From positions 1 to 64,000 of the IMG/VR virus record IMGVR_UViG_3300035685_000001: DNA of 64,000 nt. One strand, written 5' to 3'. Position 1 is the stretch's first letter; every line of letters starts with the position of its first letter. Shown here one piece after another: positions 1,862-53,384 of the stretch. This DNA comes from a virus. The translations under genes were made by a program, and so were the position numbers. A model generated the notes under the pieces. The model was given only the letters and a program-made list of their open reading frames with translations. It had not been told where the DNA came from and ran no database searches.

Positions 1862-2401
1862 ATGGAAAGCTTAGAAGACATCTTGCAATTGCCTTGTGTG
1901 GATTTTCGACTTAAAAGACTATTGCCTGACGCAAGAGGTATTTATTTTCTCGTGGTGCAGTCCTCAGAGTTGATTTATTTAGGTAAAACGTGTGTGTCTT
2001 TTAAGCAACGATGGCAACAGCATCATGTAGGAACGTTTGTTAGACGAATTTTAAGGAGAGCTTCTGAGTACGGATGGGAAGATGCTTGTTTTAAAATTCA
2101 TTATCTTGAACAGAATTATCTTACTGAGGTTCAGATGCATGAATTAGAGCAATGTCTGATTGCTGAGTTTTGTCCTATTTGGAACGGTATGAAGGGTGGG
2201 AAAGTATGTGAACCCATTTTGGACTTGTTTGGTTTTAAGAAGCCTGACAATATTCCACTTTCATCTTATGAGCTTGAAAAAATAGAAGCTCGCCAATTAA
2301 GACAAAAGGCAAGAGCTTGCGAGTTGTACTTAGAGTATGTAGAGAGGTGCAATGCAGAGGGCGTTAACTTTGCAAGAGACGAAGCTTTTAGATTTTGCTA
2401 G
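1862..2401 (+). CDS. GIY-YIG nuclease domain protein (homing-endonuclease-like)
   Basis: N-terminal GIYFLVVQSSELIYLGKT matches the GIY-x9-YLG motif spacing. A terminator follows at 2426-2453. Confidence 0.6.
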   Translation: MESLEDILQLPCVDFRLKRLLPDARGIYFLVVQSSELIYLGKTCVSFKQRWQQHHVGTFVRRILRRASEYGWEDACFKIHYLEQNYLTEVQMHELEQCLIAEFCPIWNGMKGGKVCEPILDLFGFKKPDNIPLSSYELEKIEARQLRQKARACELYLEYVERCNAEGVNFARDEAFRFC

Positions 2402-5333: not shown

Positions 5334-6890
5334 ATGGTTTTATTTCAGACTGAAAGGGCAGCACTCAAGCCGACTAAAGTAATTGCTAACACTTACGATG
5401 CAATCTTCCTCAGCACAGCCGTTGTCACAATGGGCAGTGCATTAATGTTAAGTGGGTCGCTAGACAAGATTAGTAAAGCTCTGCTGACTACAACCTCTGT
5501 GGCATCCCTAGCTTGTTACACAATCAACTGCAAAGTCACAGAGAAAGCGAGAGCAGTAAACAAAGTATTTGAAGAAATACAATGGGATTCCATGAAGTAT
5601 TCCCTCAAGGAAGAAGAAGAGGTTTATGAACTTGCTGCACAGATTAATGGAGCTAGCCGCAAGGTAGAAGTAATCCTGAATAAGTCAAATCCTTGGGAGT
5701 GGCAACACTGGGCAAGGCAAGGCAAGGTAGTAGAAATATTTCCACCAGTAGGAGACTTAACAGGCGAGCAGATAGAACAACCGACAGTAGCTAATAATGT
5801 TGCTGTACCTCAGGCGCAAGTCAATACCTTTACTCAAGAGACTGTTAACAGTGTTGTTGCTCCTGATGAAATGGCACAACTTCAAACCTTAGCAGCAGCC
5901 TATCCTAATTTTGTTCGGATTGATTCAGATTGGTTAGATGAGCTTTGCAGAGATGCAAGCAACCCCAACATGAGTAAGCGTTTTAATCATCACTTTTGCA
6001 TTACAGGTGAAACACAATCAGGTAAGTCCACTATTGCAGGGGTGATAGTTAATAAGATTTCTGCTAACTCTGGAAAGCCATCTACTGTTATTGGTTCAGA
6101 CCCTAAAGACGGAGTTACTCGTTGGTTGTGCAAGTTTAGCTTTTTGTTTGAAGGCTACCAACAAGTAGACAACTGGATTCAATTTGCATTCAGACAAGCT
6201 GAAGAACAAAAGAAAGCTTACGCTAAGAACCCTGAAGAGACTGGTGAGCTATTCTTCATCCAAGATGAAGTTGATACTACTTTTGGCAATGGAAAGGGCT
6301 TCTTAGGCTTCCAAGGTGCCAACAAGAAGCTTGCAGCTTCACAGGCGCAGTCAGCACAGTCCTTGTGGAACTATCTTGTCAAGTTTACTGCTGGGATGAA
6401 AGGACATTATATCGGACTAGGGCAGTCTCCACTATCTCAAGATACTGGTTTAAGCCGTCCAGCTTACAAGTCGGTCTGTTTTATTGCACTTGGTTCAACA
6501 GTCGATTACATCTTTGAACATCCGGCTGATTTCTTGCGGGTCAATAAAGAAACTCAGGAAATCCTCAATGATGCTGCTGAGTTTATGAAAAATGCAGGTT
6601 TGCGTTTTGCCCTTGTAGTCCCGATGAGAGGCAACCCTTACATTGCTCTGATTCCTCAGTTCGATATTGAGTCAATGCAGGTCTCTACCAACGTTAAAGA
6701 AATTGCCGATAGTGACCCTAATCTTAAGACTCTGCCTCAGCTAGAAGCTGAAATGATGGAATGGGTACAAAACCTTGATGAGTTACCGTCACCCGTACAA
6801 GTTAAAGAGAAGTGGGAATCTATGAGCGGTAAACCACTAGAAGCTAATCAGCTTAAGGCAATCCTCAAAGGTCTAGGCTTAATGGAGTAA
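5334..6890 (+). CDS. Membrane-anchored P-loop NTPase (FtsK/HerA/coupling-protein-like)
   Basis: N-terminal hydrophobic helices, Walker A GETQSGKST and Walker B-like LFFIQDEVD. The family is not resolved by eye. Confidence 0.5.
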   Translation: MVLFQTERAALKPTKVIANTYDAIFLSTAVVTMGSALMLSGSLDKISKALLTTTSVASLACYTINCKVTEKARAVNKVFEEIQWDSMKYSLKEEEEVYELAAQINGASRKVEVILNKSNPWEWQHWARQGKVVEIFPPVGDLTGEQIEQPTVANNVAVPQAQVNTFTQETVNSVVAPDEMAQLQTLAAAYPNFVRIDSDWLDELCRDASNPNMSKRFNHHFCITGETQSGKSTIAGVIVNKISANSGKPSTVIGSDPKDGVTRWLCKFSFLFEGYQQVDNWIQFAFRQAEEQKKAYAKNPEETGELFFIQDEVDTTFGNGKGFLGFQGANKKLAASQAQSAQSLWNYLVKFTAGMKGHYIGLGQSPLSQDTGLSRPAYKSVCFIALGSTVDYIFEHPADFLRVNKETQEILNDAAEFMKNAGLRFALVVPMRGNPYIALIPQFDIESMQVSTNVKEIADSDPNLKTLPQLEAEMMEWVQNLDELPSPVQVKEKWESMSGKPLEANQLKAILKGLGLME

Positions 6891-7153: not shown

Positions 7154-7488
7154 CAACTTACTTCTATCAAAATCTACGATGGGACGTGCGCTACCCTCCT
7201 AACTGGTCTGACATCAGGCGAGCAACCCATGAGGCTACAGGAGGGATTTGCTGCTGCTGCAAACAAAACTTAAGCACTGAAGTCCATCACAGTCGTTATC
7301 TGTGGAAGGGTGACACGCCAGGGGTTAATGCTTTCGGGCTTTGTAATGGGTGTCACATATTAAGTCACTCTAAGGCTAACTGGATTAAGCACAAAGGAAA
7401 CCCACTCTGGAAAAGTAGAAATACTCCAGAGTGGGAAGCAAAGCTTATAGCGGGGTTCAATACGTTGTCATACAAAACGCATATCTAA
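7150..7488 (+). CDS. HNH endonuclease-like protein (paralog 1)
   Basis: CCCC...EVHHSRY...NAFGLCNGCHILSHSKANW: Cys cluster plus an HH..N..H pattern. Paralog of 8629..9045. Confidence 0.6.
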   Translation: MTTYFYQNLRWDVRYPPNWSDIRRATHEATGGICCCCKQNLSTEVHHSRYLWKGDTPGVNAFGLCNGCHILSHSKANWIKHKGNPLWKSRNTPEWEAKLIAGFNTLSYKTHI

Positions 7489-8231
7489 GATATTTCTCTA
7501 TGTTTTTTAAACCATAAGCGTCTTTGAGGATGCAAAACGTTAAGCCAATATTCATAAATATCTCTTTTTCTTTTAAGACATGGGACTTCACTACTTGAGT
7601 AGATTAAACTTCCAAGCGTTTTGATACTGTCTGCCTTAAATATTTGAACTCTCCAGACACCATTCTCTTGTATGTAATATTTTGAATCAATGTCTATTGA
7701 TTCAAAATATTCTTGAATTCCTTTGTGCATTTTTGATTTGCCGCAAATGTATACGGATAATGTCCCGTTGAATTTTGATTTTGTCTTCATGAGTCTTATG
7801 GAGCCGTCTCCATCTATGCACCCTCTTATAAAACCTGGCATAAACTCATGAGGTATATTGGGCATCCCAATAGTTAGACTTTTACTTTCATATAGCCCTA
7901 TTTCTCTTAATCTATTGGCAATAATTTTATTACTACAGACCCAATCAGAAGCTATTTTATTCTTCCTCTCTTTTATTGGTCTTTTATTTTCGGTAAGAAC
8001 ATTTACAATTTCTAGCATCTCTACATCTTTAGAACAAATGCTGATTTGATTCCCGTTTATATTTCCATCTGTCCAAATTAAACCAAGAACCCAGGCAAGT
8101 TCATCACTCCACTCAAAAAAGAAATTTTCGTTTATTTCGTACTTTACGTACTCTTTTACTAACCCTAAGCGCTTCTTTTGTCTTGCTAGTGTTCGAGGGC
8201 TACCTGTTCCAATTGGCAAAAATGAAGGCAT
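7485..8231 (-). CDS. LAGLIDADG homing endonuclease (two-motif)
   Basis: Motifs LGLIWTDGNI and FIRGCIDGDGSI. Visibly AT-richer than its neighbours and opposite in strand to them. Confidence 0.75.
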   Translation of the reverse strand: MPSFLPIGTGSPRTLARQKKRLGLVKEYVKYEINENFFFEWSDELAWVLGLIWTDGNINGNQISICSKDVEMLEIVNVLTENKRPIKERKNKIASDWVCSNKIIANRLREIGLYESKSLTIGMPNIPHEFMPGFIRGCIDGDGSIRLMKTKSKFNGTLSVYICGKSKMHKGIQEYFESIDIDSKYYIQENGVWRVQIFKADSIKTLGSLIYSSSEVPCLKRKRDIYEYWLNVLHPQRRLWFKKHREIS

Positions 8232-8628: not shown

Positions 8629-9045
8629 ATGAAAAAGCCAAGAAATCCAAAGAAGCGCAAACAAAAGTATGTGAAAACACCAGAGTTTAAACCCAAGCCT
8701 AAATATGATTGGACTGTACGTTATGGCAACTTAGACGACTACCGAAGACTCTGTGCTAGGACTCACTCTGCTACCCATGGACGCTGTTGTGTGTGCCTCA
8801 CAGAGAAGAGTGACGTTATCCACCACAGCAGATATTTAGGCGCGCATGATGAGCCTGGAAAAAACGTCTTCGGAACGTGCCACAGATGCCACCGCAAAAG
8901 GTGTCATTCTAAAGCGAATTGGATTTGGGATGACAAAGACCCTGTTTGGGGGAATCACAACACTGTTGGCTTTGAAAAGAGGTTACAAGGTGGTTTCAAA
9001 ATGCTGAGCGCGGGCAGAAGCTTGAGGATAACTCCAATAGTTTAG
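8629..9045 (+). CDS. HNH endonuclease-like protein (paralog 2)
   Basis: CCVC...VIHHSRY...NVFGTCHRCHRKRCHSKANW aligns with 7150..7488. Confidence 0.6.
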   Translation: MKKPRNPKKRKQKYVKTPEFKPKPKYDWTVRYGNLDDYRRLCARTHSATHGRCCVCLTEKSDVIHHSRYLGAHDEPGKNVFGTCHRCHRKRCHSKANWIWDDKDPVWGNHNTVGFEKRLQGGFKMLSAGRSLRITPIV

Positions 9046-9144
9046 GCTCATACTCAAAACTGACCTTTAAGCCTTACTGTGTAAGAGTTGTAGTAGACGG
9101 AACAAGCAAAAGTTTAACTAGAACCAAGAAGCTGTAGTTCCGTC
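9045..9144 (+). repeat. Structured intergenic repeat, copy A
   Basis: GGCTCATACTCAAAACTGACC...CTTACTGTGTAAG...GACGGAAC(N37)GTTCCGTC. Confidence 0.8.
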
Positions 9145-9250
9145 TATTTTCTGACCATTGTTTACGTCATATTGCGTTAAAGTGTGGTTGTGCTGCGAGC
9201 AAGTTTTAGACAGAACCTCCTCTAACAGCCAGATAACATCCTTCAACTGA

Positions 9251-9349
9251 GCCTCATCTTTAAACTGACTTCTAATGCTTACTGTGTATGAGGTGTAGCT
9301 AGCGGTACTAACGGGGGTATAGTTAAATCATAAGCTCAGTAGTTCCGTC
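9251..9349 (+). repeat. Structured intergenic repeat, copy B
   Basis: GCCTCATCTTTAAACTGAC...GCTTACTGTG...AGCGGTACTA...TAGTTCCGTC. Ends 13 nt before ATG 9363. Confidence 0.8.
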
Positions 9350-9362
9350 CAATGAAGACACC

Positions 9363-9596
9363 ATGACACAAGTTAAATACAGCGTTGAAGAGTATTGTGA
9401 AGCTCTTTGGTATCCTAGTCCTAAGTCATCTTCAGTGTTAGGTAAGCGAGTGGCAACAGCGTATCGTAATGCAGGGCTAGGCGAGCCTGAGACAGATGAA
9501 AGACTAGTTAGAGGCAGATTAATTCCTGTTAAGGTCTACGACTGCCCTAATCAAGTCGTAGAAAATGCCATTCACAAGTACTACGACGAGGTTTAA
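9363..9596 (+). CDS. Hypothetical protein
   Basis: Track ORF starting 13 nt after repeat copy B. Terminator at 9656-9676. Confidence 0.4.
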   Translation: MTQVKYSVEEYCEALWYPSPKSSSVLGKRVATAYRNAGLGEPETDERLVRGRLIPVKVYDCPNQVVENAIHKYYDEV

Positions 9597-9655
9597 GACT
9601 GCCGCTTAAAGTTTATGATTCTAGATTAAACCGTACTCATATGACTGCACATTTA

Positions 9656-9676
9656 GGCTCGTTGCGAGCCTTTTTT
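9656..9676 (+). terminator. Rho-independent terminator
   Basis: Stem GGCTC/GAGCC followed by T6. Confidence 0.55.
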
Positions 9677-9708
9677 AGTACTAACAGCCAGGGAACATAC
9701 CTCTATTC

Positions 9709-9807
9709 GGCTCATGCTAAGAATTAACCTCAACCTGTTGGTATATAAGGCATTTGGCAAACGGAACTAACAAGATATTAACTAGAGAATAAAGTAGTTC
9801 CTTCCGC
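9709..9807 (+). repeat. Structured intergenic repeat, copy C
   Basis: GGCTCATGCTAAG...AACGGAACTA...TAGTTCCTTCCGC. Ends 3 nt before TTGACA 9811. Confidence 0.7.
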
Positions 9808-9810
9808 TTA

Positions 9811-9840
9811 TTGACATTTAGGTAAAACGTCTATTAGCAT
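9811..9840 (+). promoter_or_regulatory. Phage promoter motif TTGACATTTAGGTAAAAC
   Basis: TTGACA at 9811-9816 with TAGCAT at 18-nt spacing. 27 nt upstream of ATG 9867. Confidence 0.5.
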
Positions 9841-9866
9841 TGAGGAAGTCAAGCGAGGTAAATCAG

Positions 9867-10260
9867 ATGGGCGTTAACACAGTTGGTTTTGTTGCAACAG
9901 ACAACAAAGACTTTTTTGAAGTCATGACACTGGTAGAAAAAAGTGCTGTTAGACCTAGTGATTGAAACACACCCGACACTTAAAGACAGGTTAGGCAAGT
10001 TTCCAAGCACAAAAGTTCATCCTTCCAGTAAAGCAGCACGTACTCATTTTGGGTTTAAAGATGAAGACAGAATGATATCAATCAATTTTGACTGTGACTG
10101 TGATTACTCAGACACTTATGAAGGCTCTAAAATCATCTTCAGCCTCGGCTGTAGTGGATGCGCTCAAGAAGTCATACTTAAGCTTTTAGAGGCGTTCAAG
10201 GTTTACGGAGATGTCTACTACTGCTCAAACGATGCAGAGGAGGATTTCGTCAAGCTCTAA
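9867..10260 (+). pseudogene. Hypothetical gene split at an A6 run (frameshift, recoding or homopolymer error)
   Basis: ATG 9867 follows promoter 9811-9840 and reads 32 codons to TGA 9963. The long ORF 9943..10260 lies in the +1 frame and has only a GTG inside the A-run region (A6 at 9937-9942). Removing one A gives a continuous ORF of about 130 aa. Confidence 0.45.
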
Positions 10261-10280
10261 ACACTAACACTGAATCACAA

Positions 10281-10304
10281 AGCGGGTTAACCACCCGCTT
10301 TTTT
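10281..10304 (+). terminator. Rho-independent terminator
   Basis: Stem AGCGGGT/ACCCGCT followed by T6. Confidence 0.7.
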
Positions 10305-10337
10305 AGTGCCCACTGCCAGATAGCCTACACCAAATTA

Positions 10338-10436
10338 GCTCCAAACTGAAACTGACCTCTAATGCTTACTGTCAAAGGTTTTCAGCTACCTACACTAGAC
10401 CTTATTGGATTAGAAAAGAACCAAGTTAGTGTAGGC
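10338..10436 (+). repeat. Structured intergenic repeat, copy D (stem-swapped)
   Basis: Conserved 5' half (ACTGACCTCTAATGCTTACTGT). The distal stem is CCTACACTA / TAGTGTAGG instead of ACGGAACTA / TAGTTCCGT. Confidence 0.8.
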
Positions 10437-10474
10437 AGCATCCGTTGATAGCAGCAAGGTAACTCACTTCAGTT

Positions 10475-10575
10475 GACCTCATGCTCAAAACTAGCCTCAA
10501 ACGCTTACTACTCAAGGTTTTCACTTACCGGAACTAGCAGAATGTAGATTAAAACAGAACCTCAGTAGTTCCGTC
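10475..10575 (+). repeat. Structured intergenic repeat, copy E
   Basis: GACCTCATGCTCAAAACTAGCC...GCTTACTAC...CGGAACTA(N29)TAGTTCCG, a perfect 8-bp stem. Confidence 0.8.
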
Positions 10576-10694
10576 TACTAAGTTTAGACTTCACATAGCA
10601 AAACGCCTTACTGTAAGTCATGGTTGCGAGCATCCCAAGTAATGAAAGTAGTCACAACACCGCAGCTCCAATCAGGGAACATACCTGGTTTTAC

Positions 10695-10792
10695 CTCTTG
10701 CTAGAAATCAACCTCAAATGCTTAGCCCGTAAGCATTACAGCTAACGGTACTACCGAAATCTAACTAATAACAGAAGCACAGTAGTTCCGTC
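10695..10792 (+). repeat. Structured intergenic repeat, copy F
   Basis: AACCTCAAATGCTTA-GCCCG-TAAGCATT (8-bp hairpin), then AGCTAACGGTACTA...TAGTTCCGTC. Confidence 0.8.
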
Positions 10793-10815
10793 TTAAGTCC
10801 TCACCTACACCGCTC

Positions 10816-10853
10816 TAAAAATGGCACCTCTAGAAAGCGTTTCTAGAGGTGCC
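10816..10853 (-). terminator. Rho-independent terminator (leftward)
   Basis: 12-bp stem GGCACCTCTAGA/TCTAGAGGTGCC with the T-run on the minus strand. Confidence 0.7.
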
Positions 10854-10885
10854 AAGTAGGCTAGTGATAGATAGAGCCTTAAGGT

Positions 10886-11266
10886 TTATTCGATCTGTCT
10901 GCTCGCCTCCTGAGTTGCGTCTGAAAGCTTTCTAATAGTCCACCCCTTGTAAGGTTTGCCCCAACGAATGTAGAGACTCACAGAAGGATAAGGCAAGTCT
11001 TGCTCTGCACACCATTCAGGAAGGTCTGTAATGGTAGTCTGCTCGCCTTCAGGACTCGTGGCAATGTAAGTCTTGAGGTGATAGCTTCTGACCTTATCTA
11101 GCATCTCTTGACGGTTGGATTCCCAGTGTCTCTTAAAGTAGCCTTTAGGATGTCCGTTTAAGGCTTGCTGTAGGGTCATTCCTTTCCGCAGTCGGGAATA
11201 GACAGTTTGAGGATTTAAGCCAGCTTGTAGGGCTAGCTGATAGACGTTAGGTGTTTGCTTAGGCAT
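10886..11266 (-). CDS. HTH DNA-binding protein (homing-endonuclease-associated type?)
   Basis: Internal ATG 11266 has GGAGG 9 nt upstream. NVYQLALQAGLNPQTVYSRLRKG looks like an HTH. The track N-terminal extension to 11428 is probably spurious. Terminator at 10816-10853. Confidence 0.5.
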   Translation of the reverse strand: MPKQTPNVYQLALQAGLNPQTVYSRLRKGMTLQQALNGHPKGYFKRHWESNRQEMLDKVRSYHLKTYIATSPEGEQTTITDLPEWCAEQDLPYPSVSLYIRWGKPYKGWTIRKLSDATQEASRQIE

Positions 11267-20732: not shown

Positions 20733-21383
20733 TTACTCGACTCCTGTTGCTGTAAGGGTAATGGGTTCACCTTCTACGGGTTCAACGCCACTAGGTGTAA
20801 CTGTAGGTTCTGGCTCAAGGCTAGGTTGTCCACCATCTACTGCTAAACCTGTCTCTATCCCTGTTGCACTTAAGTCACCCCGTACTATTTTCATCCCTGT
20901 TACAGGGTCAGGATAGCCAACAATTACCATATTGTATGCAGACTGAGTGGTCTTACCAAATGCAAGACTGGCTTCAGTTTCAATTCCACCGTTAAGAATT
21001 GTAAACCAATCGTCTTTAGCTTCCGTAGGGAGAAAACCTTCATAAGGTTTAAGTAGAATCTTACGCTTAGGCACTCGCAACCCAGTAAGATCTCCGTACT
21101 CTAGCTTGCGCTTTGTTGGGTCTGCATTAATTGTGTACCTACTGGGATTAGTAGCTTGCCTAAAGAAATTTAAGCCTATCTCGCTAAGGCTTAACTCTAG
21201 GCGCACTTCTAGACCTGTAAAGCTTTTATCTGCTGGACTCTCACTTTGCTGAGTTTGATGCTCAGCCATCATGTCACTAATCGTTAGCGTGGCATCTTCT
21301 AGCTGATGTTCCCTCGCTATTATGAATTGCCCCGATTCACCAGGGGCAACAGTAACTTGAATGGGTCCGATGTGAGTACGCAC
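20733..21383 (-). CDS. Tail-tube-protein paralog with Pro/Glu/Thr-rich C-terminal extension
   Basis: Aligns along most of its length with 56091..56654 (RTHIGPI...REHQLEDAT...ADKSFTGLEV...YGDLTGLRVPKR...DDWFTIL...GYPDPVTGMK). Confidence 0.55.
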   Translation of the reverse strand: MRTHIGPIQVTVAPGESGQFIIAREHQLEDATLTISDMMAEHQTQQSESPADKSFTGLEVRLELSLSEIGLNFFRQATNPSRYTINADPTKRKLEYGDLTGLRVPKRKILLKPYEGFLPTEAKDDWFTILNGGIETEASLAFGKTTQSAYNMVIVGYPDPVTGMKIVRGDLSATGIETGLAVDGGQPSLEPEPTVTPSGVEPVEGEPITLTATGVE

Positions 21384-22330: not shown

Positions 22331-22354
22331 ACCCGCTCACAAAGCGGGTTTTTT
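22331..22354 (+). terminator. Rho-independent terminator
   Basis: Stem ACCCGCT/AGCGGGT followed by T6. Confidence 0.7.
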
Positions 22355-22409
22355 AGTGCCTGTTTCTAGGCGGAAGGCGAGCTAATAGAAGACCAACTCC
22401 TGTCTAATC

Positions 22410-22509
22410 TGTCTTCTCTAAAAATACACCTCTAATGCTTATGGGGCAAGGTATTGAGCTAACGGGAGTAGCTAGATCTCAGTAATAAGAAGACCCTTGT
22501 AGTTCCGTC
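22410..22509 (+). repeat. Structured intergenic repeat, copy G
   Basis: ACACCTCTAATGCTTA...GAGCTAACGGGAG...CTAGATCTCAGTAATAAGAAGAC...GTAGTTCCGTC. The 3' half is nearly identical to copy K. Confidence 0.8.
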
Positions 22510-22604
22510 TATTTTCTTGCCTGGGTTCACCTCATGAGGTGCGATCGCGCTGGTCTTGATTACCCCAAGCTGCGAGCAACAGTGAAGTAACTACCTTACT
22601 GTAG

Positions 22605-22705
22605 GTTGCCCCACAAGAATTGCCCTCAAGTACTTACTGTATAAGGTGTTTAGCTAACGGGACTAGCGGAATATTTACTAGAGAATAGAGTAGGTTCTCC
22701 CGTCC
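22605..22705 (+). repeat. Structured intergenic repeat, copy H
   Basis: ...ACTTACTGTATAAGGTGTTTAGCTAACGGGAC...TTCTCCCGTCC, with stem ACGGGA/TCCCGT. Ends 11 nt before TTGACG 22717. Confidence 0.75.
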
Positions 22706-22716
22706 CAATAAATCCA

Positions 22717-22799: not shown

Positions 22800-24050
22800 A
22801 TGTCTAACTTGTTGCAATTCAGCGCTGATACATTCTCAAGCCTATCTACCCTGGAATATGCAAGCCAGTGGGAGCAAGTCGGGTTTGACCAACTTTGGGA
22901 AGATGAGCAGCTCATTATCACTGAGTTTTTAAGGCTCGCCAAAGGTGACACTGATATTGAGCTAAATTTCAAGAATGTTCTGCTAGTCAAGACTAATGAT
23001 GACCGGATGCTTCAGAACGTCTATGGACCTTCTATCTTCCGTGAATCAGAGAATGGTGACGGGTTAGTACTTAAAGCTGGTGCTAATGCATTCCCAGTAA
23101 TTCTTCAAAACGGGAAGCTGACAGTCGGTAATTTTACTGGCAAGTTTCATTGGGTTACTAAGAAGCGTCTTGATGAATCTACCTATGATGTCTTGGTTGC
23201 TCGCTTGTACGACAGCACCTCTGAAGACGACGATCCCCTCATGTATGAGTTTGGCTGTTCGTTGGCTGCTACAGACTCGACTATCGACGTTAACGGACGC
23301 ATTGAGAAGAATCCCCTATATCTGAGTCAACCAAAGCTAGACAAGCTGCTAGATGCCAATGCCGGATTGGGGCAATTCTTCTCAGCACCTAAGTCTGGTG
23401 GTGGCAGTATCTTCAAGATGCAAGAGATGTCTGCCAACACAGAGTATGAAGTAATTGACGTTGATGCTACCGAACCTCATCCAGAGTACGGAGTCTCTTA
23501 CATCTTGCGTTTAGCAGGGGGGGCAAGCTGTTTTGCTCGCGGCAACAGCGCAACGCTTCTAAAGAAAAACTTCAAGGGTATAAAAGACCAGCTTAAGTCC
23601 GGTAAAACTTGGACTCTTAAAATTGGTGCAATCACAGAAGAACGCGACAAAGATGGCAAAGTCAAGAAAACTTACGTTAACAATGCTCTCGTAGCACGTC
23701 AAGCGGCAATGAGTGGCAATGCCCCTAAGCCTATTCAACAAGCTCAGAAAGCGATCGCACCCGTAGCTGCTACTCCTAATAAGCCATCTTCAGTGGATGA
23801 CCTTATCAAATGGGCAACCGCTAAAGGTGTTAAAAAGGATGTGATTAACGGCTTGTTTGAAGATATCAACGCTGTAGCCGCTACAAGAGCAGCAGAAGGC
23901 TCACCAATGAGTAGCGAAGATAAACGAGATAGTTTTATGGCTTCTGTTGAGGCAGGTCTTAAAGCTCAAGCCACTCAGACATTAGACACTGTTGCAGTAG
24001 CAGTTGGTGACGATACTGAAACAGGAGGTGTTGATAATATCCCATTTTAA
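22800..24050 (+). CDS. Hypothetical protein with SSB-like C-terminal tip (GGVDNIPF)
   Basis: Ala/Lys-rich flexible C-terminal third ending in DNIPF. Terminator at 24081-24106. Confidence 0.5.
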   Translation: MSNLLQFSADTFSSLSTLEYASQWEQVGFDQLWEDEQLIITEFLRLAKGDTDIELNFKNVLLVKTNDDRMLQNVYGPSIFRESENGDGLVLKAGANAFPVILQNGKLTVGNFTGKFHWVTKKRLDESTYDVLVARLYDSTSEDDDPLMYEFGCSLAATDSTIDVNGRIEKNPLYLSQPKLDKLLDANAGLGQFFSAPKSGGGSIFKMQEMSANTEYEVIDVDATEPHPEYGVSYILRLAGGASCFARGNSATLLKKNFKGIKDQLKSGKTWTLKIGAITEERDKDGKVKKTYVNNALVARQAAMSGNAPKPIQQAQKAIAPVAATPNKPSSVDDLIKWATAKGVKKDVINGLFEDINAVAATRAAEGSPMSSEDKRDSFMASVEAGLKAQATQTLDTVAVAVGDDTETGGVDNIPF

Positions 24051-25731: not shown

Positions 25732-25742
25732 TTGACATTACA

Positions 25743-25771
25743 TTGACATTACGTTGACAATTAGCTAATAT
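25743..25771 (+). promoter_or_regulatory. Triple-TTGACA promoter
   Basis: TTGACA at 25732, 25743 and 25754. The box at 25743 has a 17-nt spacer to TAATAT (25766-25771). Confidence 0.55.
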
Positions 25772-25794
25772 TAAGCATTGAATTAAACGAAAGA

Positions 25795-26344: not shown

Positions 26345-26377
26345 AAAAAGCGGCTAAGATTTTTAGCCGCTTTTTTT
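26345..26377 (+). terminator. Rho-independent terminator
   Basis: Stem GCGGCTAA/TTAGCCGC followed by T7. Confidence 0.75.
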
Positions 26378-26378
26378 A

Positions 26379-26407
26379 TTGACATTAGATTGACGATTAG
26401 ATAATAT
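26379..26407 (+). promoter_or_regulatory. Dual-TTGAC promoter
   Basis: TTGACA, 17-nt spacer containing TTGACGATTAGA, then TAATAT. Confidence 0.55.
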
Positions 26408-26434
26408 AGACTCATTCACTCAAAGCTACAAGCC

Positions 26435-27024: not shown

Positions 27025-27054
27025 GCGACAATGTACAGGCATTGCCGCTTTTTT
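27025..27054 (+). terminator. Rho-independent terminator
   Basis: Stem GCGACAATG/CATTGCCGC (one mismatch) followed by T6. Confidence 0.65.
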
Positions 27055-27055
27055 A

Positions 27056-27084
27056 TTGACAGTGTATTGACATTTAAATAAAAT
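27056..27084 (+). promoter_or_regulatory. Dual-TTGAC promoter
   Basis: TTGACA, 17-nt spacer containing TTGACATTTAAA, then TAAAAT. Confidence 0.55.
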
Positions 27085-27108
27085 ATTACTATCACTCTAC
27101 AATTAACT

Positions 27109-27741: not shown

Positions 27742-29145
27742 ATGGCAGCCGTAAGATTAACCCAACAGCGCTGGAGTTTAATAGCCCTACTTGGTTTAAG
27801 TATCACAAGTGGTGTAGTTGCACTTGCTGTTATTTCTCAGAACTATTCCACTGCTGCTAGTAGCAGTATGAGAGCAAAGAATGCCATACTCGCTCTGAGC
27901 GAGCTAGAAGGCTCTCTAAAGGATGCTGAAACGGGTCAAAGGGGATTCCTCCTAACTGGAGACGATGATTACCTAGACCCTTACATAGAAGGAGCAGGGA
28001 TAGCACAAGCTAATGTCGCGAAGCTTGAAAGTCTACTTAAGACCTCAGACACTGTAAGTGCAAAAAGCCTTGAAGATATTAAACACTTCACGGCTCTTAA
28101 GCTTGCTGAACTGGAAGAGACGATTGCCTTAAGACGCTTCAGAAGTCTAGAGGCTGCTTTGCCCGTAGTCAAGTCTGGTGAAGGCAAAGGCTACATGGAT
28201 ATCATTCGAGCTAGGTCTAACCGCATCCGTTACGCTCAAGAGTCCATCCTTGGCACCAACCTTGCAATCCTTGACCAACTCAACACAGTACGCAATAGCA
28301 TAATCCTAATCATTAGCATGGCTTCTGCTGGTATCTTCTGGCTACTCTTCCAGAGTTTTAAAGAAGAGACGGCACTACGCAAGCAAATAGTAGCCAATCA
28401 AGAAGCTGAAATAGAAAAGAATGAAGCTGATGTTAAAGCTCTTAAGGAAGCTGCAGACCTTAAAGAACGTGAGCTAAGCTTCCGTATTCATGATTGGAAG
28501 AATCCAGTAACAGCGATTCAAAGTAGTATCGACCTAATAAACTACTATTACAAAAAACAACAACTTACAAACAGTCATTTTGAAAAACATTACGAGCGCA
28601 TCATTGTAAATGTTGCAACATTGCTGGATGGCTTTAACGATGCTTTGGTAGTAGCGCGTGCAGAAGCAGGAAGACTAGACGTGATTAAGCAATCTACAGA
28701 CCTTGGAATAGTCATCCGAAATAGCATTAATGCCGTAGAGTCAAAAGCTATTAATCACACTATTAGACTGTACCAAAGTGAACTTGAGTACCAGGTAATG
28801 TGTGATGCCAGTTTGGTGCAAAGGGCAATAGTGAATCTACTAGAGAATGCTATTAAACACACTCCAAGTGGTGAGATAGGGGTGTGCCTTCACAAGGTGG
28901 CTACAAAGACGCTCATCCAGGTAGCAGACCAAGGTGAGGGCATACCACCTGAAGACTTACAACGCCTGTTCAGTGCCTTCGAGAGAGGCAATACAACAGC
29001 TAAGGGAACTGGACTAGGTTTAGCTGTTGTGAAGTCGTGTGCAGAGGCTCACGAAGGGTCTGTCAGGGTGGAGTCAAGGGAGGGCTTAAGACTCGCTCAT
29101 CCTGATGGACTGACTTATAGGACTATGTTTACTCTTTCGATTTGA
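27742..29145 (+). CDS. CHASE3-domain sensor histidine kinase
   Basis: TM1, then a periplasmic ETGQRGFLLTGDDDYLDPY (CHASE3 signature), TM2, coiled coil, H-box IHDWKNPVTAI, N-box LENAIKHTP, G1 DQGEGIP, F LFSAFERG, G2 GTGLGLAVV. Confidence 0.8.
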   Translation: MAAVRLTQQRWSLIALLGLSITSGVVALAVISQNYSTAASSSMRAKNAILALSELEGSLKDAETGQRGFLLTGDDDYLDPYIEGAGIAQANVAKLESLLKTSDTVSAKSLEDIKHFTALKLAELEETIALRRFRSLEAALPVVKSGEGKGYMDIIRARSNRIRYAQESILGTNLAILDQLNTVRNSIILIISMASAGIFWLLFQSFKEETALRKQIVANQEAEIEKNEADVKALKEAADLKERELSFRIHDWKNPVTAIQSSIDLINYYYKKQQLTNSHFEKHYERIIVNVATLLDGFNDALVVARAEAGRLDVIKQSTDLGIVIRNSINAVESKAINHTIRLYQSELEYQVMCDASLVQRAIVNLLENAIKHTPSGEIGVCLHKVATKTLIQVADQGEGIPPEDLQRLFSAFERGNTTAKGTGLGLAVVKSCAEAHEGSVRVESREGLRLAHPDGLTYRTMFTLSI

Positions 29146-29240
29146 GGCGGAACTTGTAGAGGTGTTATTAAGTATTAGATCTACTAGTTCTGTTTGTTGG
29201 GATGCTTGCAGGGTAAGATTTTAAGGTTGATTTTGGGGAT
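29145..29240 (-). repeat. Structured intergenic repeat, copy N (only minus-strand copy)
   Basis: The reverse complement reads CCCCAAAATCAACCTTAAAATCTTACCCTGCAAGCATCCCAACAAACAGAACTAG...ATCTAATACTTAATAACACCTCTACAAGTTCCGCCTC. The last 37 nt differ from copy J at one position. Confidence 0.75.
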
Positions 29241-29496
29241 GGAGTGGATGGAGGTGAGTTGCTTGAGAGTTGTTCGCTGGTTTGAGAAAAATGTAGACAA
29301 GCTGATAGGTGAGCAGCCGTTGAGTAATGTGGACTTGGTTATTCTTCAGAAGCTTTTTGATGTTGCTGACAACAATCCAATGTGTGATTGCTATCCGATT
29401 AAGACGGTTGAGCAAATTAAGTATATTAAAGATGTTGCACATATTGTGATAACAAAACAAGATTATGATTATTTTCTGGAATGTGATGCAACTTAG
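29239..29496 (+). CDS. Hypothetical protein
   Basis: The plus-frame translation has normal composition, whereas the overlapping minus ORF is I/L/N low complexity. The start is uncertain (ATG 29239 or later). Confidence 0.35.
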   Translation: MEWMEVSCLRVVRWFEKNVDKLIGEQPLSNVDLVILQKLFDVADNNPMCDCYPIKTVEQIKYIKDVAHIVITKQDYDYFLECDAT

Positions 29497-29554
29497 ATAC
29501 ACAAAAGTATTTTAAAAGGCAACTTAATAGAGGTTAATGGCTTTTGTCTTCCAA

Positions 29555-30388: not shown

Positions 30389-30629
30389 ATTTCCTAAAAA
30401 GGCGATCGCCTTGCGAAGCTCCAACAAAAAAGCCAGCAGAGCTAACTACTGACTTTTTTGCAACTAAATAAGGAATACAACGATAAGCAGATTCAAACTT
30501 ACAGGGTCGATGCTGCAAGTCAGCGCCGTAATCTGCTAATCATCACTTTTCTATTCTATCTCAAAATGCGATCGCACCTCCTGAACTGCCAGCAACAAGA
30601 CCGGACTGGAGACTAACTACCCTCTGTTG

Positions 30630-30730
30630 AGTTCATACTCTAAACAGACCACTATTGCTTACTACATATACGTTACAGCTAACGGCAGTAGCAGAGTTTA
30701 ATAACTAATAACACCTGTTGTACTTCCGCC
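30630..30730 (+). repeat. Structured intergenic repeat, copy I
   Basis: GTTCATACTCTAAACAGACC...GCTTACTACAT...CAGCTAACGGCAGTAGC...TAATAACACCTGTTGTACTTCCGCC. Confidence 0.7.
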
Positions 30731-30747
30731 TATTAACCTTACACCAC

Positions 30748-31251: not shown

Positions 31252-31455
31252 ATGGTTACTGATTTTATTTGGCAGAATGCCGACATCGTAAAGCCTGATG
31301 AAGGCACAGAAGTATTAATCCAGGATGAATCGAAAAACTATTGGTTGGGCTTCTACAATTACAGACTAGGTGAGTATTCTGACTCAGTAGATAGTCTTAA
31401 GGTTACTGCTAAGTGGTGGACTTATATTTCACCCGCACCAAGTGAGGCAAGTTAA
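31252..31455 (+). CDS. DUF551-like protein (paralog 2)
   Basis: FIWQNADIVKPDEGTEVLI...WLGFYNY...VTAKWWTYISP. Confidence 0.5.
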   Translation: MVTDFIWQNADIVKPDEGTEVLIQDESKNYWLGFYNYRLGEYSDSVDSLKVTAKWWTYISPAPSEAS

Positions 31456-31685
31456 TGAGCAGCAATATTGAGTGGCAAGATGCAAGTAAAGTTAAACCTT
31501 CTACAAATCCCCATGACTCAATTGAGACTGTAGAAGTTTTGATAGAAAGTACTGATGATATTTGGTATTTAGGCATTTATAACTATAAGAGTCAACAATG
31601 GGAAGAAACAACGGATTATCAACCCATCAAAGCTAAATGGTGGTCATACATCCCTGACACACCTGACTCAAAAACGGGAGATTAG
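31455..31685 (+). CDS. DUF551-like protein (paralog 3)
   Basis: IEWQDASKVKP...VEVLI...YLGIYNY...IKAKWWSYIP. TAATG overlap with the previous ORF. Confidence 0.5.
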   Translation: MSSNIEWQDASKVKPSTNPHDSIETVEVLIESTDDIWYLGIYNYKSQQWEETTDYQPIKAKWWSYIPDTPDSKTGD

Positions 31686-31791
31686 TCTCTCTGTTATTAT
31701 CTACACTCTACTAGTGTCGCTAGCTATAAACCTTATAGGTTAAGCATTACAGTTCACTTTTAATCCTGAACATCCTACAACCAAGTTCCTC

Positions 31792-32025
31792 ATGAAGTAC
31801 CGTCAAATGGCATGGCTTGAAACTCATTCCACTGCAACCAACAAAGTTCTCCACCTCAAAGCTGACGATGGCAATTGGCATCCCTACAGTGCCTTCTCTC
31901 ATCTCAGGAAGCCTGATAGTACTCTGCCAGGTGCTAGCAAAGGTTATGCCACCATGCAACACTTACTCAAGGCTGGATGGCAGTTAGTGCCCTCTGAAGA
32001 GGCGAGCAAAGTCATGGTAATCTAA
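31792..32025 (+). CDS. Hypothetical protein
   Basis: I prefer the plus ORF over the overlapping minus ORF because a plus-oriented terminator follows at 32056-32081. Confidence 0.4.
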   Translation: MKYRQMAWLETHSTATNKVLHLKADDGNWHPYSAFSHLRKPDSTLPGASKGYATMQHLLKAGWQLVPSEEASKVMVI

Positions 32026-32055: not shown

Positions 32056-32081
32056 CCCAGGCAGCAATGCTTGGGATTTTT
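32056..32081 (+). terminator. Rho-independent terminator
   Basis: Stem CCCAGG/CTTGGG followed by ATTTTT. Confidence 0.55.
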
Positions 32082-32082
32082 A

Positions 32083-32111
32083 TTGACAACGCGCTGACGA
32101 TTAGGTAAAAT
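32083..32111 (+). promoter_or_regulatory. Dual-box promoter
   Basis: TTGACA, 17-nt spacer containing CTGACGATTAGG, then TAAAAT. Confidence 0.55.
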
Positions 32112-32134
32112 AATGGAAGTATATCACGAAAACT

Positions 32135-38881: not shown

Positions 38882-38938
38882 GGAATATAGCAAATAAGGT
38901 CTAAGATGGGGAGATGCTTGTGTCTCCCCTCTTGTTGT

Positions 38939-41900
38939 ATGTCTATAGACATTGCGTCAGTTTCTATTCCTACGGAGATTAATTTATCGGGATTTAATTC
39001 AGGACTTGCAGCGCTTGAGCGTACCAAAATAAAAAGCCTAGAGGTAGACGTAAAGCTCAACACACAGAGCTTAGAGCGTGACAGAAAGCAGTTAGAGGCA
39101 ACGTTAGCAAAGCCACTAACTCTGAACTTAGAGGTAGATGACACAGCACTACTGACACTTAGAAGACGATTACAGAAGCAAGCACCTTACAAAGTTAAAG
39201 TCACAACAGAAGTAGACACTAGAGGTGTTATTAACGCACGTCAGCAGATTAACAAGTCAATTGGCAATATCCCAGAAGTAAAAATCTGTGTTGACGACTC
39301 AGAGCTTTATGAACTGAACAAGCACATTGAGCTTAAGCGTACTCACGTCAAAGACATCAATAAGTGGATGGCAGCTAATCCTATTACTGTCCATGCGGAC
39401 ACCAGTAGGGTTGATGCTTTTGAAAAGCGCACCATAAAGGGCAAGAAAGTTAGAGTTGAAGTTGAGTATGATGACCCTGGCTATAAGTCAACTGCATTAG
39501 CCACTCATTCAGTTTCATCAACAAAGTCCACGTTGAATTTCACAAAGCCTCTAGAAGCTCAGACAAAGGCTCTTGATTCTGCAATCGACTCAGCAGCCGA
39601 CAAGATAGCCGATGCGCTTGAGAAAGGCTTTAAGAGCCAAAAGAAAGGACTCTTAGGAGAGATAGGTTCAGGCTTGCTACTTGGAGCAACCTTTAAGGGA
39701 GGCTCAGCCTTATTTGATAAAGCTACAGGTAAAGCCAAACAAACCGTTACTCAACAAAAAGAACAACGTCAAGCCTTTACTCAACTTAATTATAAAAGTC
39801 AAGTTGCTGTAACTAAAAAGCAGGTAGTTGTTCAAAATAAAGAAACTGATAAGTTACGCCAAGAGATGCTGCAAATGAATAACAGGGATGTTATTCAGCC
39901 TCTAGCAAAGAAAGCAGGTGTCAAAGCATCTACTAAAGTTCAAGCCGTAGAAGGCTTATTAAGCGGACAGTCTCCACAACAACTTAAAACTCAATTACCT
40001 TACATTGATAATATTCGTCAAGAGGCTGTTAAAACCTCTGAACAATTATCAAAGCTTACAGCAGTTCAGCTTAAAACTCAGTTATCAGATACTACTAAAC
40101 GACTTAGCACCAGTCTCAAAGGGATTAAAGGTACTGCCAATATTTCTGCACTGTCTGACCTTGGCAATCAAATAGAAAAAGAATATCAAGCCGTTATTGC
40201 CACATTATCAGAAGCTACTGAAGAGGATGCAAAAAACATTTTACAGTCGGCAAAGCTTCAGATAGCTAAGATTCGCAAAGCAACCTCAACAGAAGCTCAG
40301 AAAGTTTCTTTAGAAAGCATTCAAAATCAAGGCAATCAACAAGGGCAACAGCAGTTTTTAAGACGCGCCAAGCAACCTAAGTTTAATGCACTCCAACAGC
40401 GTCGCATTAAAGAAATGCAATACAACGCTCGCATTGTAGAAGAGCGAGCAGAGCAAATCTATCAGACTCTTCCAGACCTTCCTAAAGACACTAAACGTAT
40501 TGCACTTGTGTCAGGTGGTTTTGCAAGTAAGCATGGCAAGTCAAGCCATTCTGTTGCTGAAAGAATGAAGCCATTCTTAGGAGAAGGTACTCATGTACAG
40601 CCTGTAGAAAATCCTGATACGGATTGGGGTGACTATGATGCAACAGTTGAGAAAGACCCTATCTCATGGGCAAAAAATGCTGTCAAAGTAGTTGCAAAGC
40701 ATAATTTAGGCAAAGGTTACAAAGAAGACTCTATACAAGCTGCTGCCTACGCTAAAGCTTACGCCAAGAAAGCTAAAGAACAAGGCTTAAACATTCCAAA
40801 CATTGAAGGTTATGGCTACTCAGCAGGAGGTTTTGTAATGCAAGAAGCGGCTGAGTTAAGCCGTGAAACTAGAACACCATTTAAAGGTGTAGGAATAGGT
40901 ACACCTCACTATGGAATCTCCAACACTGCCTCTCAAGAAGATTACATTAGCGTATTAGGTGGACAAGACCCGCTCTCTAAACTTCAACCTGTCAAGTCAC
41001 CTAACCTTAGAACTTATGCTAAAGCAGGTCGAAAACACCTTTTAGAAGAGTACACAAACAATCCGGATGTGCAGCGTGACATTTTCTCCCACATGGGGAG
41101 AGAAGCCCCTTTTGCACTCGGTCAGGACTTTGAAGAGAACATGATGTCGGCAATGAATGCCGCACAAGAAAGTCTTAGCATTAACCCTCGAATGCGTCCT
41201 ACTCTTGCTGCAAGTGGAGCAATTGACCCTGTATTAGACGAACTCACAAAGCATCGTGAAACAATAGCCGATCAAATAGACAACATCCCCTTGGAAATTT
41301 TAGAAGACGTTAAAGCAGCGGATGAAGTATTACAAGGTCTTCAGAATCAACTAATCAAAGGATTTGGACTAAAGGGTAAATCTGTTGCCCCTTTAGCGCA
41401 AGCTGGAAAGAAAGTTATAAAAACACCTGCTCAGCAAATTGTAGGGAATGGAGATAAAGAGCAGCAAATACTTAAAAATTATCATGCCATTCTTAAAGAA
41501 ATGGCAGACGTAGCAGGGGTTACGGTAAATCAAACTCAAGTCCCAAAATTAACTGTAGACCCTGCTAAGCTTAAACGTTTAGATGCAAATGCTTATTACG
41601 AGTCTGGTTCAAAAAATGAAATAACAATTCAACCACGATTGGCAGAATTGCTTGCTCTTCCTACAGAAGAATTAAAAAACTATAGTAAAGAACTAACTTC
41701 TTTGACTCATGAGTTATTTCATAGTATTGATTTAGCTTTTGGCGAAAAGACCATAGGAGGGTTGGCAAGAGGAACAGATCAGATTGAAACTCCCTTATCT
41801 CCATCTGTCACTGTTAACGGTGACAGAATGGCAAGGATAGCAATGGCTGACACTAAGCGAAGTCAGCCACGAGCAAACAATGATTATTTAAAGACCATAG

Positions 41901-52155: not shown

Positions 52156-52186
52156 AAATAAAGCCCTCTTATAAGAGGGCTTTATT
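52155..52186. terminator. Bidirectional terminator between the gpM-like gene and parB-like gene
   Basis: A-run, then AAGCCCTCTTA/TAAGAGGGCTT, then a T-rich tail. Confidence 0.7.
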
Positions 52187-52206
52187 ACTTGTGACGGTTT
52201 TAGAGC

Positions 52207-53169: not shown

Positions 53170-53284
53170 GATTTAAGTGGTAATTGGGTCTAAGTAAGGG
53201 TGAGGCTTCACCCTTTTCTTTTTCAATAGTAATCCTAATTTGCCCAATTGTCAAACGAACACAGCAGCAACACACCTGTAATCA

Positions 53285-53384
53285 GTCCACTCAAAAAGTA
53301 AACCTCTAATGGTTACTGCATATAGGTTTCAGCCAACAGAACATACAGTATCTAATACTTAATAACACCTTTACAAGTTCCGCC
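53285..53384 (+). repeat. Structured intergenic repeat, copy J
   Basis: CCACTCAAAAAGTAAACCTCTAATGGTTACTGC...ATCTAATACTTAATAACACCTTTACAAGTTCCGCC. Ends 2 nt before ATG 53387. Confidence 0.75.

Follow-up and report, generated by a model that had tools for sequence, protein, structure and literature searches.

A clade-restricted family of non-coding intergenic elements with a covarying hairpin in large uncultivated phages

The uncultivated virus IMGVR_UViG_3300035685_000001 of the IMG/VR collection, analysed here over positions 1 to 64,000 of its record (the 64,000-nt stretch that we call the window), harbours 15 intergenic copies of a non-coding element of about 137 nt. These copies belong to a real, clade-restricted and apparently so far undescribed family, of which 59 distinct members were collected from this genome and three related uncultivated phage contigs. 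The element combines a 5' half conserved in sequence with a distal hairpin, P2, which is under selection for complementarity of its two arms. The reading that we favour, with a probability of roughly 40%, is that of a co-transcribed, cis-acting RNA module bounding small genes and transcription units in this phage clade.

An initial annotation of the window, made from the sequence alone, had described 14 copies of a structured intergenic repeat of about 100 nt. All 14 were recovered at the places given, both by nhmmer (E values of 1e-13 to 1e-26) and by a covariance model, R1, built from 36 copies (67-118 bits), and the consensus that had been drawn by eye agreed with the computed one; a fifteenth copy, on the minus strand at 31662-31798, had been missed. 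With R1, the window yielded exactly 15 copies, each at E<1e-13, the remainder of it scoring at noise, and the family was recovered by each of a repeat finder, nhmmer and the covariance model. Thirteen of the copies lie on the plus strand and two (29135-29271 and 31662-31798) on the minus strand (Table 1). The unit is longer than first described, its 5' conservation beginning with AACAGnnAAGTAAC about 25 nt before the start originally assigned, and its boundaries and length are fixed by head-to-tail neighbours that lie 1-3 nt apart (10447/10450 in the window, 15849/15851 in L013; the labels L013-L030 denote DNA stretches from this genome or its relatives outside the window). The DNA just past the two window ends holds four and two further copies, which brings the genome total to at least 21.

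Searches of related phages, proposed with the initial annotation, placed the family in three further contigs. The closest relative, IMGVR_UViG_3300036939_000014, encodes a capsid protein 94% identical to that of the window and carries about 27 copies; IMGVR_UViG_3300041964_000073 carries at least seven; and IMGVR_UViG_3300036939_000018 (capsid 84% identical) carries at least four divergent copies, seen by the structure-aware model only and detectable because the structure has been kept. Copies were absent from the 13-19 kb examined of each of two more distant capsid relatives, L019 and L021. A degenerate pattern derived from the alignment (14 fixed bases, about 51 bits), which recovers 26 of 40 known copies, matched only the contigs of this phage and its relatives among 2.9 million viral contigs, and had no match in 185,579 prokaryotic species (one genome each) or among the JGI metagenome contigs; as far as that pattern can tell, the family is therefore not a host-genome repeat. 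An exact pattern, AGCTAACGG..TAGTTCCGT, hit 12 loci in viral contigs, none of which fitted the family profile, and these were discarded as chance matches. The initial annotation had excluded a CRISPR array and had seen no resemblance to tRNAs or to an RNA family that it recognised, and our scans concur. The units, 137 nt long and 55-76% alike, are spaced from 139 nt to 22 kb apart, unlike the regularly spaced, near-identical repeats of 24-48 nt in a CRISPR array; ARAGORN reported no tRNA or tmRNA gene in the window; and Rfam, with its riboswitches, ribozymes, small RNAs and omega/HEARO RNAs, gave no match at gathering score over the whole window, region 8900-11000 yielding chance-level ones alone (E of at least 0.65). 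Literature searches on the accessions and on similar cyanophage repeats found nothing.

Two parts can be distinguished along the unit: the 5' ~78 nt, conserved in sequence and including an imperfect palindrome (the proximal hairpin, P1), and the 3' ~50 nt, which constitute the P2 hairpin. The most conserved positions, derived from 36 copies taken from the window genome and from its closest relative, are AAC at 12-14, G28, T30, AAA at 40-42, T49, A52 and CTTA at 56-59, followed towards the 3' part by A66, T72, A75 and A79, and by C81 and A85 with their partners T122 and G126. Very few indels occur along the unit across the 59 copies. Stop codons interrupt all three forward frames in 52 of the 59 and all three reverse frames in every one, the conservation profile has neither a 3-nt nor a 10.5-nt period, and the element is non-coding.

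The two hairpins were tested separately on the 59 distinct copies, with 500 shuffles of the 3' partners as controls. The distal one, which the initial annotation had recognised as recurrent, is real and covaries: over the 11 positions of P2, 70.0% of cells were paired vs 58.0±1.2% in the shuffles, 95 cells had changed on both sides vs 46, and the covariation score was 0.306 vs 0.124, values reached in each case by none of the 500 shuffles. Pairing fell to 27-42% when the partner was moved by 1-3 columns, and the uncorrected MAFFT alignment led to the same result. P2 forms a stem of 9-11 bp closed by an A-rich loop, which measures 27 nt in 53 of the 59 copies, and it occurs in at least eight distinct compensated stem variants, with fully compensated arms such as CCTACACTA/TAGTGTAGG, CCTCCAGTA/TACTGGAGG, CCGACACC/GGTGTCGG, GCGTGAAAC/GTTTCACGC and CCGGAAGCA/TGCTTCCG(T), as well as ACAGAAC/GTTTTGT, paired through a G-U. 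Only two pairs are nearly invariant, a C-G (57 of 59 copies) and an A-U (59 of 59).

Compensatory substitutions beyond those expected from composition, the mark of a structured element, were found in P2 alone. Over the 13 positions of P1, 61.4% of cells were paired vs 63.7% after shuffling, and 496 of the 500 shuffles did at least as well. The proximal hairpin therefore recurs, as had been claimed, in its potential to pair (in copy F as the perfect 8-bp stem described originally), at the level that composition provides, and is best described as an imperfect palindrome that is conserved but bears no mark of selection for pairing. Nor did the ACCT/AGGT and AAAA/TTTT pairs reported to flank it in some copies, tried as an alternative register of P1, find support across the family. 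A third hairpin in the 5' part, P0 (AAC...GTT), was weak (17 of 40 copies, 9 expected) and was not put into the model. Mutual information over all column pairs indicated no pseudoknot or long-range pair besides P2, the top scores being subfamily effects, and RNAalifold returned no consensus structure from the first 14 copies.

All copies are intergenic, and at 9 of 10 independent loci of this genome, counted manually, the orientation of the element matches that of the adjacent gene. The co-orientation with local transcription originally claimed for 13 of 14 copies is upheld, with a different exception: the minus-strand copy at 29135-29271 is co-oriented with gene 29221-29502, and the single exception among the loci counted is the copy that had been missed, 31662-31798, which lies antisense between two conserved plus-strand genes. 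It had also been stated that no copy overlaps a credible open reading frame (ORF). The copies are indeed non-coding, as their stop codons indicate, but their edges do touch ORFs, the first 13-50 nt lying within the 3' ends of the upstream genes at A, L and I, and in several copies the stop codon of the upstream gene falls within the first 13-32 nt. Other upstream neighbours are a preceding copy, a divergent promoter (K, L022:6503, L030:5964 and L025:6320) and, at C, D, G, K and M, a strong terminator-like hairpin at a distance of 12-45 nt. Downstream, about 30% of copies have a start codon within 15 nt of P2, and at least five unrelated ORFs begin in this way. About 22% have a TTGAC-type early promoter no more than 35 nt away, about 33% are succeeded by a further copy within 150 nt, and in about 10% a terminator hairpin comes next.

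Promoter scans found no sigma-70-type promoter within any copy, and sigma-70, extended -10, MotA-box, T7-like, ECF-type (AAC at -35) and NtcA-type promoters were rejected by inspection on account of misfits in spacing or key positions. An intrinsic terminator was likewise rejected, the scan placing terminators on the sense strand beside the elements and not in them, and the P2 loop measuring 27 nt vs the 3-8 nt, on a G+C-rich stem before a U-tract, of such a terminator. The weak attenuator suggested in the initial annotation fails because a T-run follows P2 in only about 9 of 40 copies.

Orientation, proximity to start codons and compensatory change lead us to favour the co-transcribed, cis-acting RNA module; a cis-regulatory or processed RNA was among the roles originally put forward and is still the leading one. 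From the sequence we infer transcription of the element, an active form that is RNA and not DNA, and an influence on message stability or translation. The 5' ~78 nt would probably act as a recognition surface for a protein or polymerase, while the P2 stem would admit any sequence whose arms pair, save for the two invariant pairs. In a transcript, P2 would lie a few nucleotides ahead of the following start codon or else close the preceding message. There it could protect ends or direct processing, or perhaps offer a binding site that sets the stability or translation of an adjacent gene lacking a Shine-Dalgarno motif. Copies would recombine with one another as a by-product, and the tandem arrays, the varying copy number, the swapping of whole P2 modules and part of the gene gain and loss described below would be accounted for in this way. 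A bolder form of this proposal, which we consider distinctly unlikely, would make the element a previously undescribed class of phage RNA with at least 21 copies per genome, either a self-contained and possibly self-cleaving processing signal, by which long transcripts would be divided into gene-sized messages and provided with their 5' ends, or an abundant decoy RNA whose fixed 27-nt A-rich loop, carried on a hairpin, would titrate a host factor while filamentous cyanobacteria are being infected.

Several observations weigh against a cis-acting RNA module. The folding energy of the whole element is ordinary (z from -3.5 to +1.2, mean about -0.4) and not lower than that of shuffled sequences. 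G-U pairs are not favoured over A-C in P2, so that the substitutions do not choose the plus-strand RNA over DNA or over the opposite strand. Orthologous copies of contigs 000073 and 000014 are 84.2% identical vs 87.5% for the surrounding DNA, which indicates no excess constraint on their sequence. A Shine-Dalgarno motif is missing from about half of the phage genes, with or without an element in front, and a role of the element as a substitute for that motif was rejected on this ground. About 22% of copies stand directly 5' of an early-type promoter and about 25% just 3' of strong terminator-like hairpins, spots at which they would be transcribed only by read-through or from an unrecognised internal promoter. 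Finally, about 40% of copies, which are in tandem or directly followed by a terminator, stand before no ORF that they could influence.

Alternatively, the element would be a stand-alone small-RNA gene, with an unrecognised phage-specific promoter in its 5' half and a P2 RNA acting in trans, for instance as a decoy or sponge, the ORFs that follow it merely borrowing its signals. With no ORF intervening, a terminator follows directly or after about 65 nt at F, L018:2249, L026:4005, L015:4207 and L014:4367, as it does at L022:6503 (terminator at 6704) and at copy L (terminator at 54218). Copies K, L022:6503, L030:5964 and L025:6320 are the first feature on their strand in divergent regions, with no sigma-70-type promoter upstream, and the strong terminators 12-45 nt 5' of C, D, G and K imply that transcription would have to restart. 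A 5' half that is conserved in sequence and does not covary is promoter-like, and a fixed-length A-rich loop would also suit such an RNA. Nevertheless, no copy contains a sigma-70-like -35/-10 pair, position 6 of the candidate -10-like hexamers is not a conserved T, no terminator separates head-to-tail copies 1-3 nt apart, T-runs after P2 are as scarce as stated above, and no RNA polymerase or sigma factor was detected among the ORFs scanned (about 44 kb of the genome lying outside the scan). We regard a small-RNA gene as a rather unlikely alternative.

Comparison between copies and between genomes revealed that the evolution of the element is concerted and modular. Copies are 55-76% identical to their best partner, with no recent, near-identical full-length ones; this partner is usually found within the same genome instead of at the orthologous locus, and it often differs between the two halves (5' and 3') of a copy. 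Contig 000014 has three distant copies that share the entire P2 module (50 nt) at 100% identity and have 5' halves 60-68% alike; exchanges that move both P2 arms together are what selection for pairing would retain. Copy number varies at syntenic loci (6 vs 2, 2 vs 3 and 4 vs 5). In the closest relative, the six copies and two genes of window region 9079-10810 are represented by 230 nt that contain two copies; region 52156-54617, with two genes and four copies, corresponds to five tandem copies; and a different gene follows copies G and H. A paralogue of gene 9363-9596 stands behind another element copy at a different locus in a relative.

The cassette-boundary recombination site envisaged in the initial annotation, together with the related expectation that gene content should change at the elements, is weakened by these data. 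Indels between relatives do fall at elements at three loci, yet gene turnover overall is not enriched there: 24 of 65 window genes have no counterpart in the closest relative, in proportions of 6 of 14 near elements and 18 of 51 far from them (Fisher p=0.76). Among the loci compared there was no clean pair of filled and empty sites with conserved flanks.

Another interpretation would make the element a selfish, strand-specific DNA repeat (MITE-, PATE- or attC-like), whose hairpin in single-stranded DNA is recognised by a recombinase or transposase and whose effects on expression are incidental. Precise head-to-tail arrays with 1-3 nt between units, the variable copy number, the greater similarity of copies to others of their genome than to positional orthologues, and the different nearest relatives of their halves all fit such a repeat, as do the presence of elements in every type of intergenic context and the lack of excess conservation among orthologues. 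A stem whose pairing is required and whose sequence is free is also what structure-recognised hairpins display, and the absence of a G-U over A-C bias speaks for such a repeat. However, the consensus has no terminal inverted repeats, the 5' end of the model, AACAGCAAAGTAAC, being unmatched in the reverse complement of the 3' end (a MITE was rejected for this reason), and the stem misfits the attC core sites RYYYAAC/GTTRRRY. No integrase or transposase was found among the ORFs scanned, where only GIY-YIG and LAGLIDADG endonuclease-like genes and a Holliday-junction resolvase turned up. No copy was found in the 185,579 prokaryotic genomes, the copies are old judging by their pairwise identity of 55-76% and the lack of recent full-length ones, and insertion 2-15 nt before a start codon would sever a gene from its own signals unless the element supplied them. 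A mobile repeat is, in our estimation, a rather unlikely explanation.

The invariant C-G and A-T pairs in an otherwise variable stem, the almost constant spacing of the arms, the paucity of indels along the unit and the ordinary folding energy could suggest instead that a dimeric phage protein (a regulator, partition or nucleoid-type protein) binds the P2 arms as the two half-sites of an inverted repeat in double-stranded DNA, the arms then changing in concert because each has to fit the protein. We find this very improbable. Several differing and fully complementary arm sequences coexist in one genome, which no single sequence-specific protein would accept and which argues against a sequence-specific dimer site; conservation has no 10.5-nt period; and a symmetric site needs no orientation bias relative to genes. 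The coexisting stem variants also speak against the centromere-like site for a ParB-like protein proposed initially, and no ParB-type domain was found among the approximately 40 ORFs scanned. At the opposite extreme, the copies might be functionless, decaying remnants of one duplicated intergenic segment, as their pairwise identity of only 55-76%, the orthologues conserved no better than their flanks and the lack of compensatory change in P1 would allow. This is the explanation that we disfavour most, with hardly any weight left to it: compensated P2 variants have arisen many times, some positions are invariant and the length is nearly free of indels across 59 copies, the orientation bias is strong, and a high copy number persists in four diverged genomes, including one in which the structure-aware model alone makes the copies visible.

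The coordinates of the 15 copies and of neighbouring signals in the window are listed in Table 1.

Table 1. Element copies and adjacent transcription signals in the window (positions are those of the window; bit scores refer to covariance model R1)
Feature	Position	Strand	P2	R1 (bits)	Details and context
Copy A	9019-9155	+	9096-9144	110.7	P1 at 9065-9093; stop codon of gene 8629-9045 within the first 27 nt
Copy B	9224-9360	+	9301-9349	99.5	ATGs at 9351 and 9363 downstream; next gene is 9363-9596
Copy C	9683-9819	+	9760-9808	98.3	Terminator 12 nt 5'; 3' tail merges into TTGACA promoter
Copy D	10311-10447	+	10388-10436	86	Fully compensated stem variant CCTACACTA/TAGTGTAGG
Copy E	10450-10586	+	10527-10575	117.8	Head-to-tail after D, 3 nt apart
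Copy F	10667-10803	+	10744-10792	101.4	P1 a perfect 8-bp stem; bidirectional terminator hairpin downstream, 10822-10854
Copy G	22384-22520	+	22461-22509	98.3	Hairpin + T6 terminator ~35 nt upstream
Copy H	22578-22715	+	22656-22704	91.6	TTGACG promoter-like site 12 nt downstream, then gene 22800-24050
Copy I	29135-29271	-		67.4	First ~50 nt within 3' end of conserved minus-strand gene 29221-29502; abuts stop codon of plus-strand histidine kinase gene
Copy J	30604-30741	+	30681-30730	96	Stem variant AGTA/TACT; TTGACA promoter-like site 28 nt downstream
Copy O	31662-31798	-		82.1	nhmmer E=1.8e-12; weak stem; antisense between plus-strand genes 31455-31685 and 31792-32025; orthologue at L016 8340-8476 in relative, same position, likewise antisense
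Copy K	53258-53395	+	53335-53384	96.4	Opens plus-strand unit in divergent intergenic region; ATG of gene 53387-54040 2 nt past P2
Copy L	54028-54164	+	54105-54153	85.3	Stop codon of gene 53387-54040 is the TAA of the element's GTAAC motif
Copy M	54267-54403	+	54344-54392	87.5	Terminator 54218-54242 upstream
Copy N	54514-54651	+	54591-54640	99.7	ATG of gene 54644-55087 3 nt past P2
Terminator-like hairpin + T6	9655-9681	+			Just 5' of copy C
Hairpin AGCGGGT..ACCCGCT + T6	10277-10305	+			Just 5' of copy D; identified by eye, unlisted by the scan tool, T-run flagged
Terminator-like hairpin	53196-53223	+			~40 nt 5' of copy K
Terminator-like hairpin	54218-54250	+			Between L and M; holds recurrent spacer motif GCGAGCAA
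Sigma-70-like promoter TTGACA-18-TAGCAT	9811-9840	+			Directly 3' of copy C

The surroundings of the elements contain other recurrent sequences. A second repeat family resembles an early promoter with a doubled box, TTGACAtttagTTGACGtttagcTAAAT (TTGACA..TTGACG..TAAAT), located 25-30 nt 5' of start codons at 1126-1170, 25737-25781, 26373-26417, 27050-27094 and 32077-32121, and also at 9811-9840, ~22718 and ~30770; across the related genomes, this motif lies downstream of about 12 of 55 elements. Terminator hairpins upstream of elements (9655-9681, 10277-10305, 22336-22362, L015 ~14280 and L026 ~4150) share the tail TTTTTTAGTGCC or TTTTTTAGTAC and look like a small repeat family too. In the five-element array of the relative, the spacers (L013 15347-15470 and 15608-15712, minus strand) share a motif of about 45 nt, GGAGTTTAGCTC..GAGAAATACTC.AAGCCTT, and element arrays may alternate two kinds of unit. 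An 8-codon mini-ORF (ATG AAG CTx xxG TCT GTT ATC ACA TGA) begins 3 nt past the element hairpin on the minus strand of L025 (~6300-6325) and L030 (~5945-5970); having been kept in two phages despite two codon changes, it could encode a leader peptide. The gene after copy C is split, its ATG frame (9868-9966) overlapping the main frame (9943-10260) at an A6 run near 9930, which reflects either a homopolymer sequencing error or a programmed frameshift.

The window is of phage origin, encoding a DUF2184-type capsid protein together with scaffold and cement proteins, as well as helicases, methylases, ThyX and homing-endonuclease-like genes. The latter comprise a GIY-YIG gene (1862-2401, plus strand) and a LAGLIDADG gene (7485-8231, minus strand) that has no counterpart in the closest relative. 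A single ORF of 4219 aa (38906-51565), with peptidase M23 and lysozyme-like (chitinase class I) domains, probably encodes a giant virion or ejection protein. A CHASE3 sensor histidine kinase (27742-29145), 83% identical to its counterpart in a relative, is an unusual signalling gene, probably derived from a host, and a 271-nt repeat, 70% identical between 20837-21107 and 56099-56369, lies within minus-strand ORFs 20733-21383 and 56091-56654, which are probably paralogous genes of the replication and structural modules. The HIP1 octamer, GCGATCGC, whose repetition is typical of cyanobacteria, occurs at 17 sites in the window vs 0.15 expected (e.g. 11287, 22541, 30402 and 30568), an excess that points to a probable cyanobacterial host.

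The capsid protein of the window is also encoded on the NCBI metagenome contig JAXMMZ011226602.1 (121,788 bp) and in the Logan assembly of SRR11829740. The NCBI contig, whose capsid is identical, stops within the giant gene at about window position 50365 (by comparison with L018), from which we conclude that the window is a differently permuted assembly of that ~122-kb genome, itself probably circularly permuted. Among GenBank phages, the best capsid relatives are merely 25-27% identical and megablast with 15 kb of the window gave no match; capsid-based scans of metagenome and genome collections returned no relatives.

The covariance model provides a specific marker for this phage clade, and the 59 copies constitute a ready-made mutational series. 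If the element is a module for RNA processing, stability or translation, it would show a route for the expression of genes without a Shine-Dalgarno motif in such phages, and could be carried over into cyanobacteria as an expression part; as a DNA site recognised by its structure, it would represent a new phage-borne recombination system.

Several known systems share part of these features. Phages T7 and T3 possess about ten related intercistronic hairpins that are RNase III sites, and those of T7 are irregular duplexes of about 20 bp with an internal loop. Like the element, they form a related, co-oriented and structured family just 5' of gene starts, and their hairpins are thought to stabilise message ends; the sole supported helix here, by contrast, has 9-11 bp and a large open loop, too short for classical RNase III. 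The attC sites of integrons, with cores RYYYAAC/GTTRRRY in a single array next to attI, resemble the element (the Vibrio cholerae repeats included) as repeats of ~60-140 nt between small co-oriented ORFs, with structure conserved above sequence, ORFs starting a few nucleotides past the preceding repeat and gene content variable between relatives. They differ in that the arms here are (A/C)CGGAAC and GTTCCG(T/C), with CCG in place of RRR, and other variants without AAC/GTT, and in that the element forms empty head-to-tail repeats, unlike integron arrays, and is scattered over at least 10 loci. The ORFs scanned and the genes called on L017, L018 and L022 yielded neither a tyrosine recombinase nor an integron integrase, about 44 kb of the genome lying outside. 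ERIC/IRU, Neisseria Correia elements and pneumococcal BOX, bacterial intergenic repeats co-transcribed with genes, are palindromic over their whole length or carry terminal inverted repeats, occur in both orientations on cellular chromosomes and can change the stability or processing of neighbouring messages. They too are multicopy, intergenic, 100-150 nt long and capable of forming hairpins, whereas the element is asymmetric, has one orientation and was found in phage contigs only. NsiR1 of Nostocales, a tandem small-RNA array in one chromosomal location whose units each have a recognisable promoter and terminator, provides a cyanobacterial precedent for head-to-tail short units each encoding a small hairpin RNA, although the element has no sequence similarity to it and no Rfam match.

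The closest parallel in genome architecture is offered by PeSL and PmSL, repeated composite intergenic elements of T4-like phages (Arbiol et al. 2010, PMC2839356; Comeau et al. 2014, PMC4122927). A PeSL opens with a terminator-type stem-loop, after which come a sigma-70-like -35/-10 promoter, a Shine-Dalgarno motif and an ATG, and PeSLs are aligned on these motifs (PMC2839356, PMC4122927). Both are repeated, composite and non-coding, occupy the intergenic spaces of plastic small-ORF regions in a large phage, follow the orientation of the genes, adjoin terminators and start codons, occur in degraded and tandem copies, and are sites of indels between close relatives. Here, however, no copy contains sigma-70-like -35/-10 hexamers 17 nt apart, there is no terminator tail, the P2 loop has 27 nt and no Shine-Dalgarno motif precedes the adjacent ATGs; the unit has a fixed length of ~137 nt and a covarying stem, and the early-promoter repeats form a separate family. 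Indels bounded by elements occur at three loci, and gene turnover, as reported above, is not enriched near elements. The element does not belong to the PeSL family, but its part in genome architecture may resemble that of a PeSL. Detailed knowledge of the non-coding signals that frame the fast-shuffled small accessory genes of large phages is available for the PeSLs of T4-like phages only, and the element would represent a second, unrelated solution, adopted by uncultivated and probably cyanobacterial phages, whose hallmark is a compensated hairpin and not a promoter.

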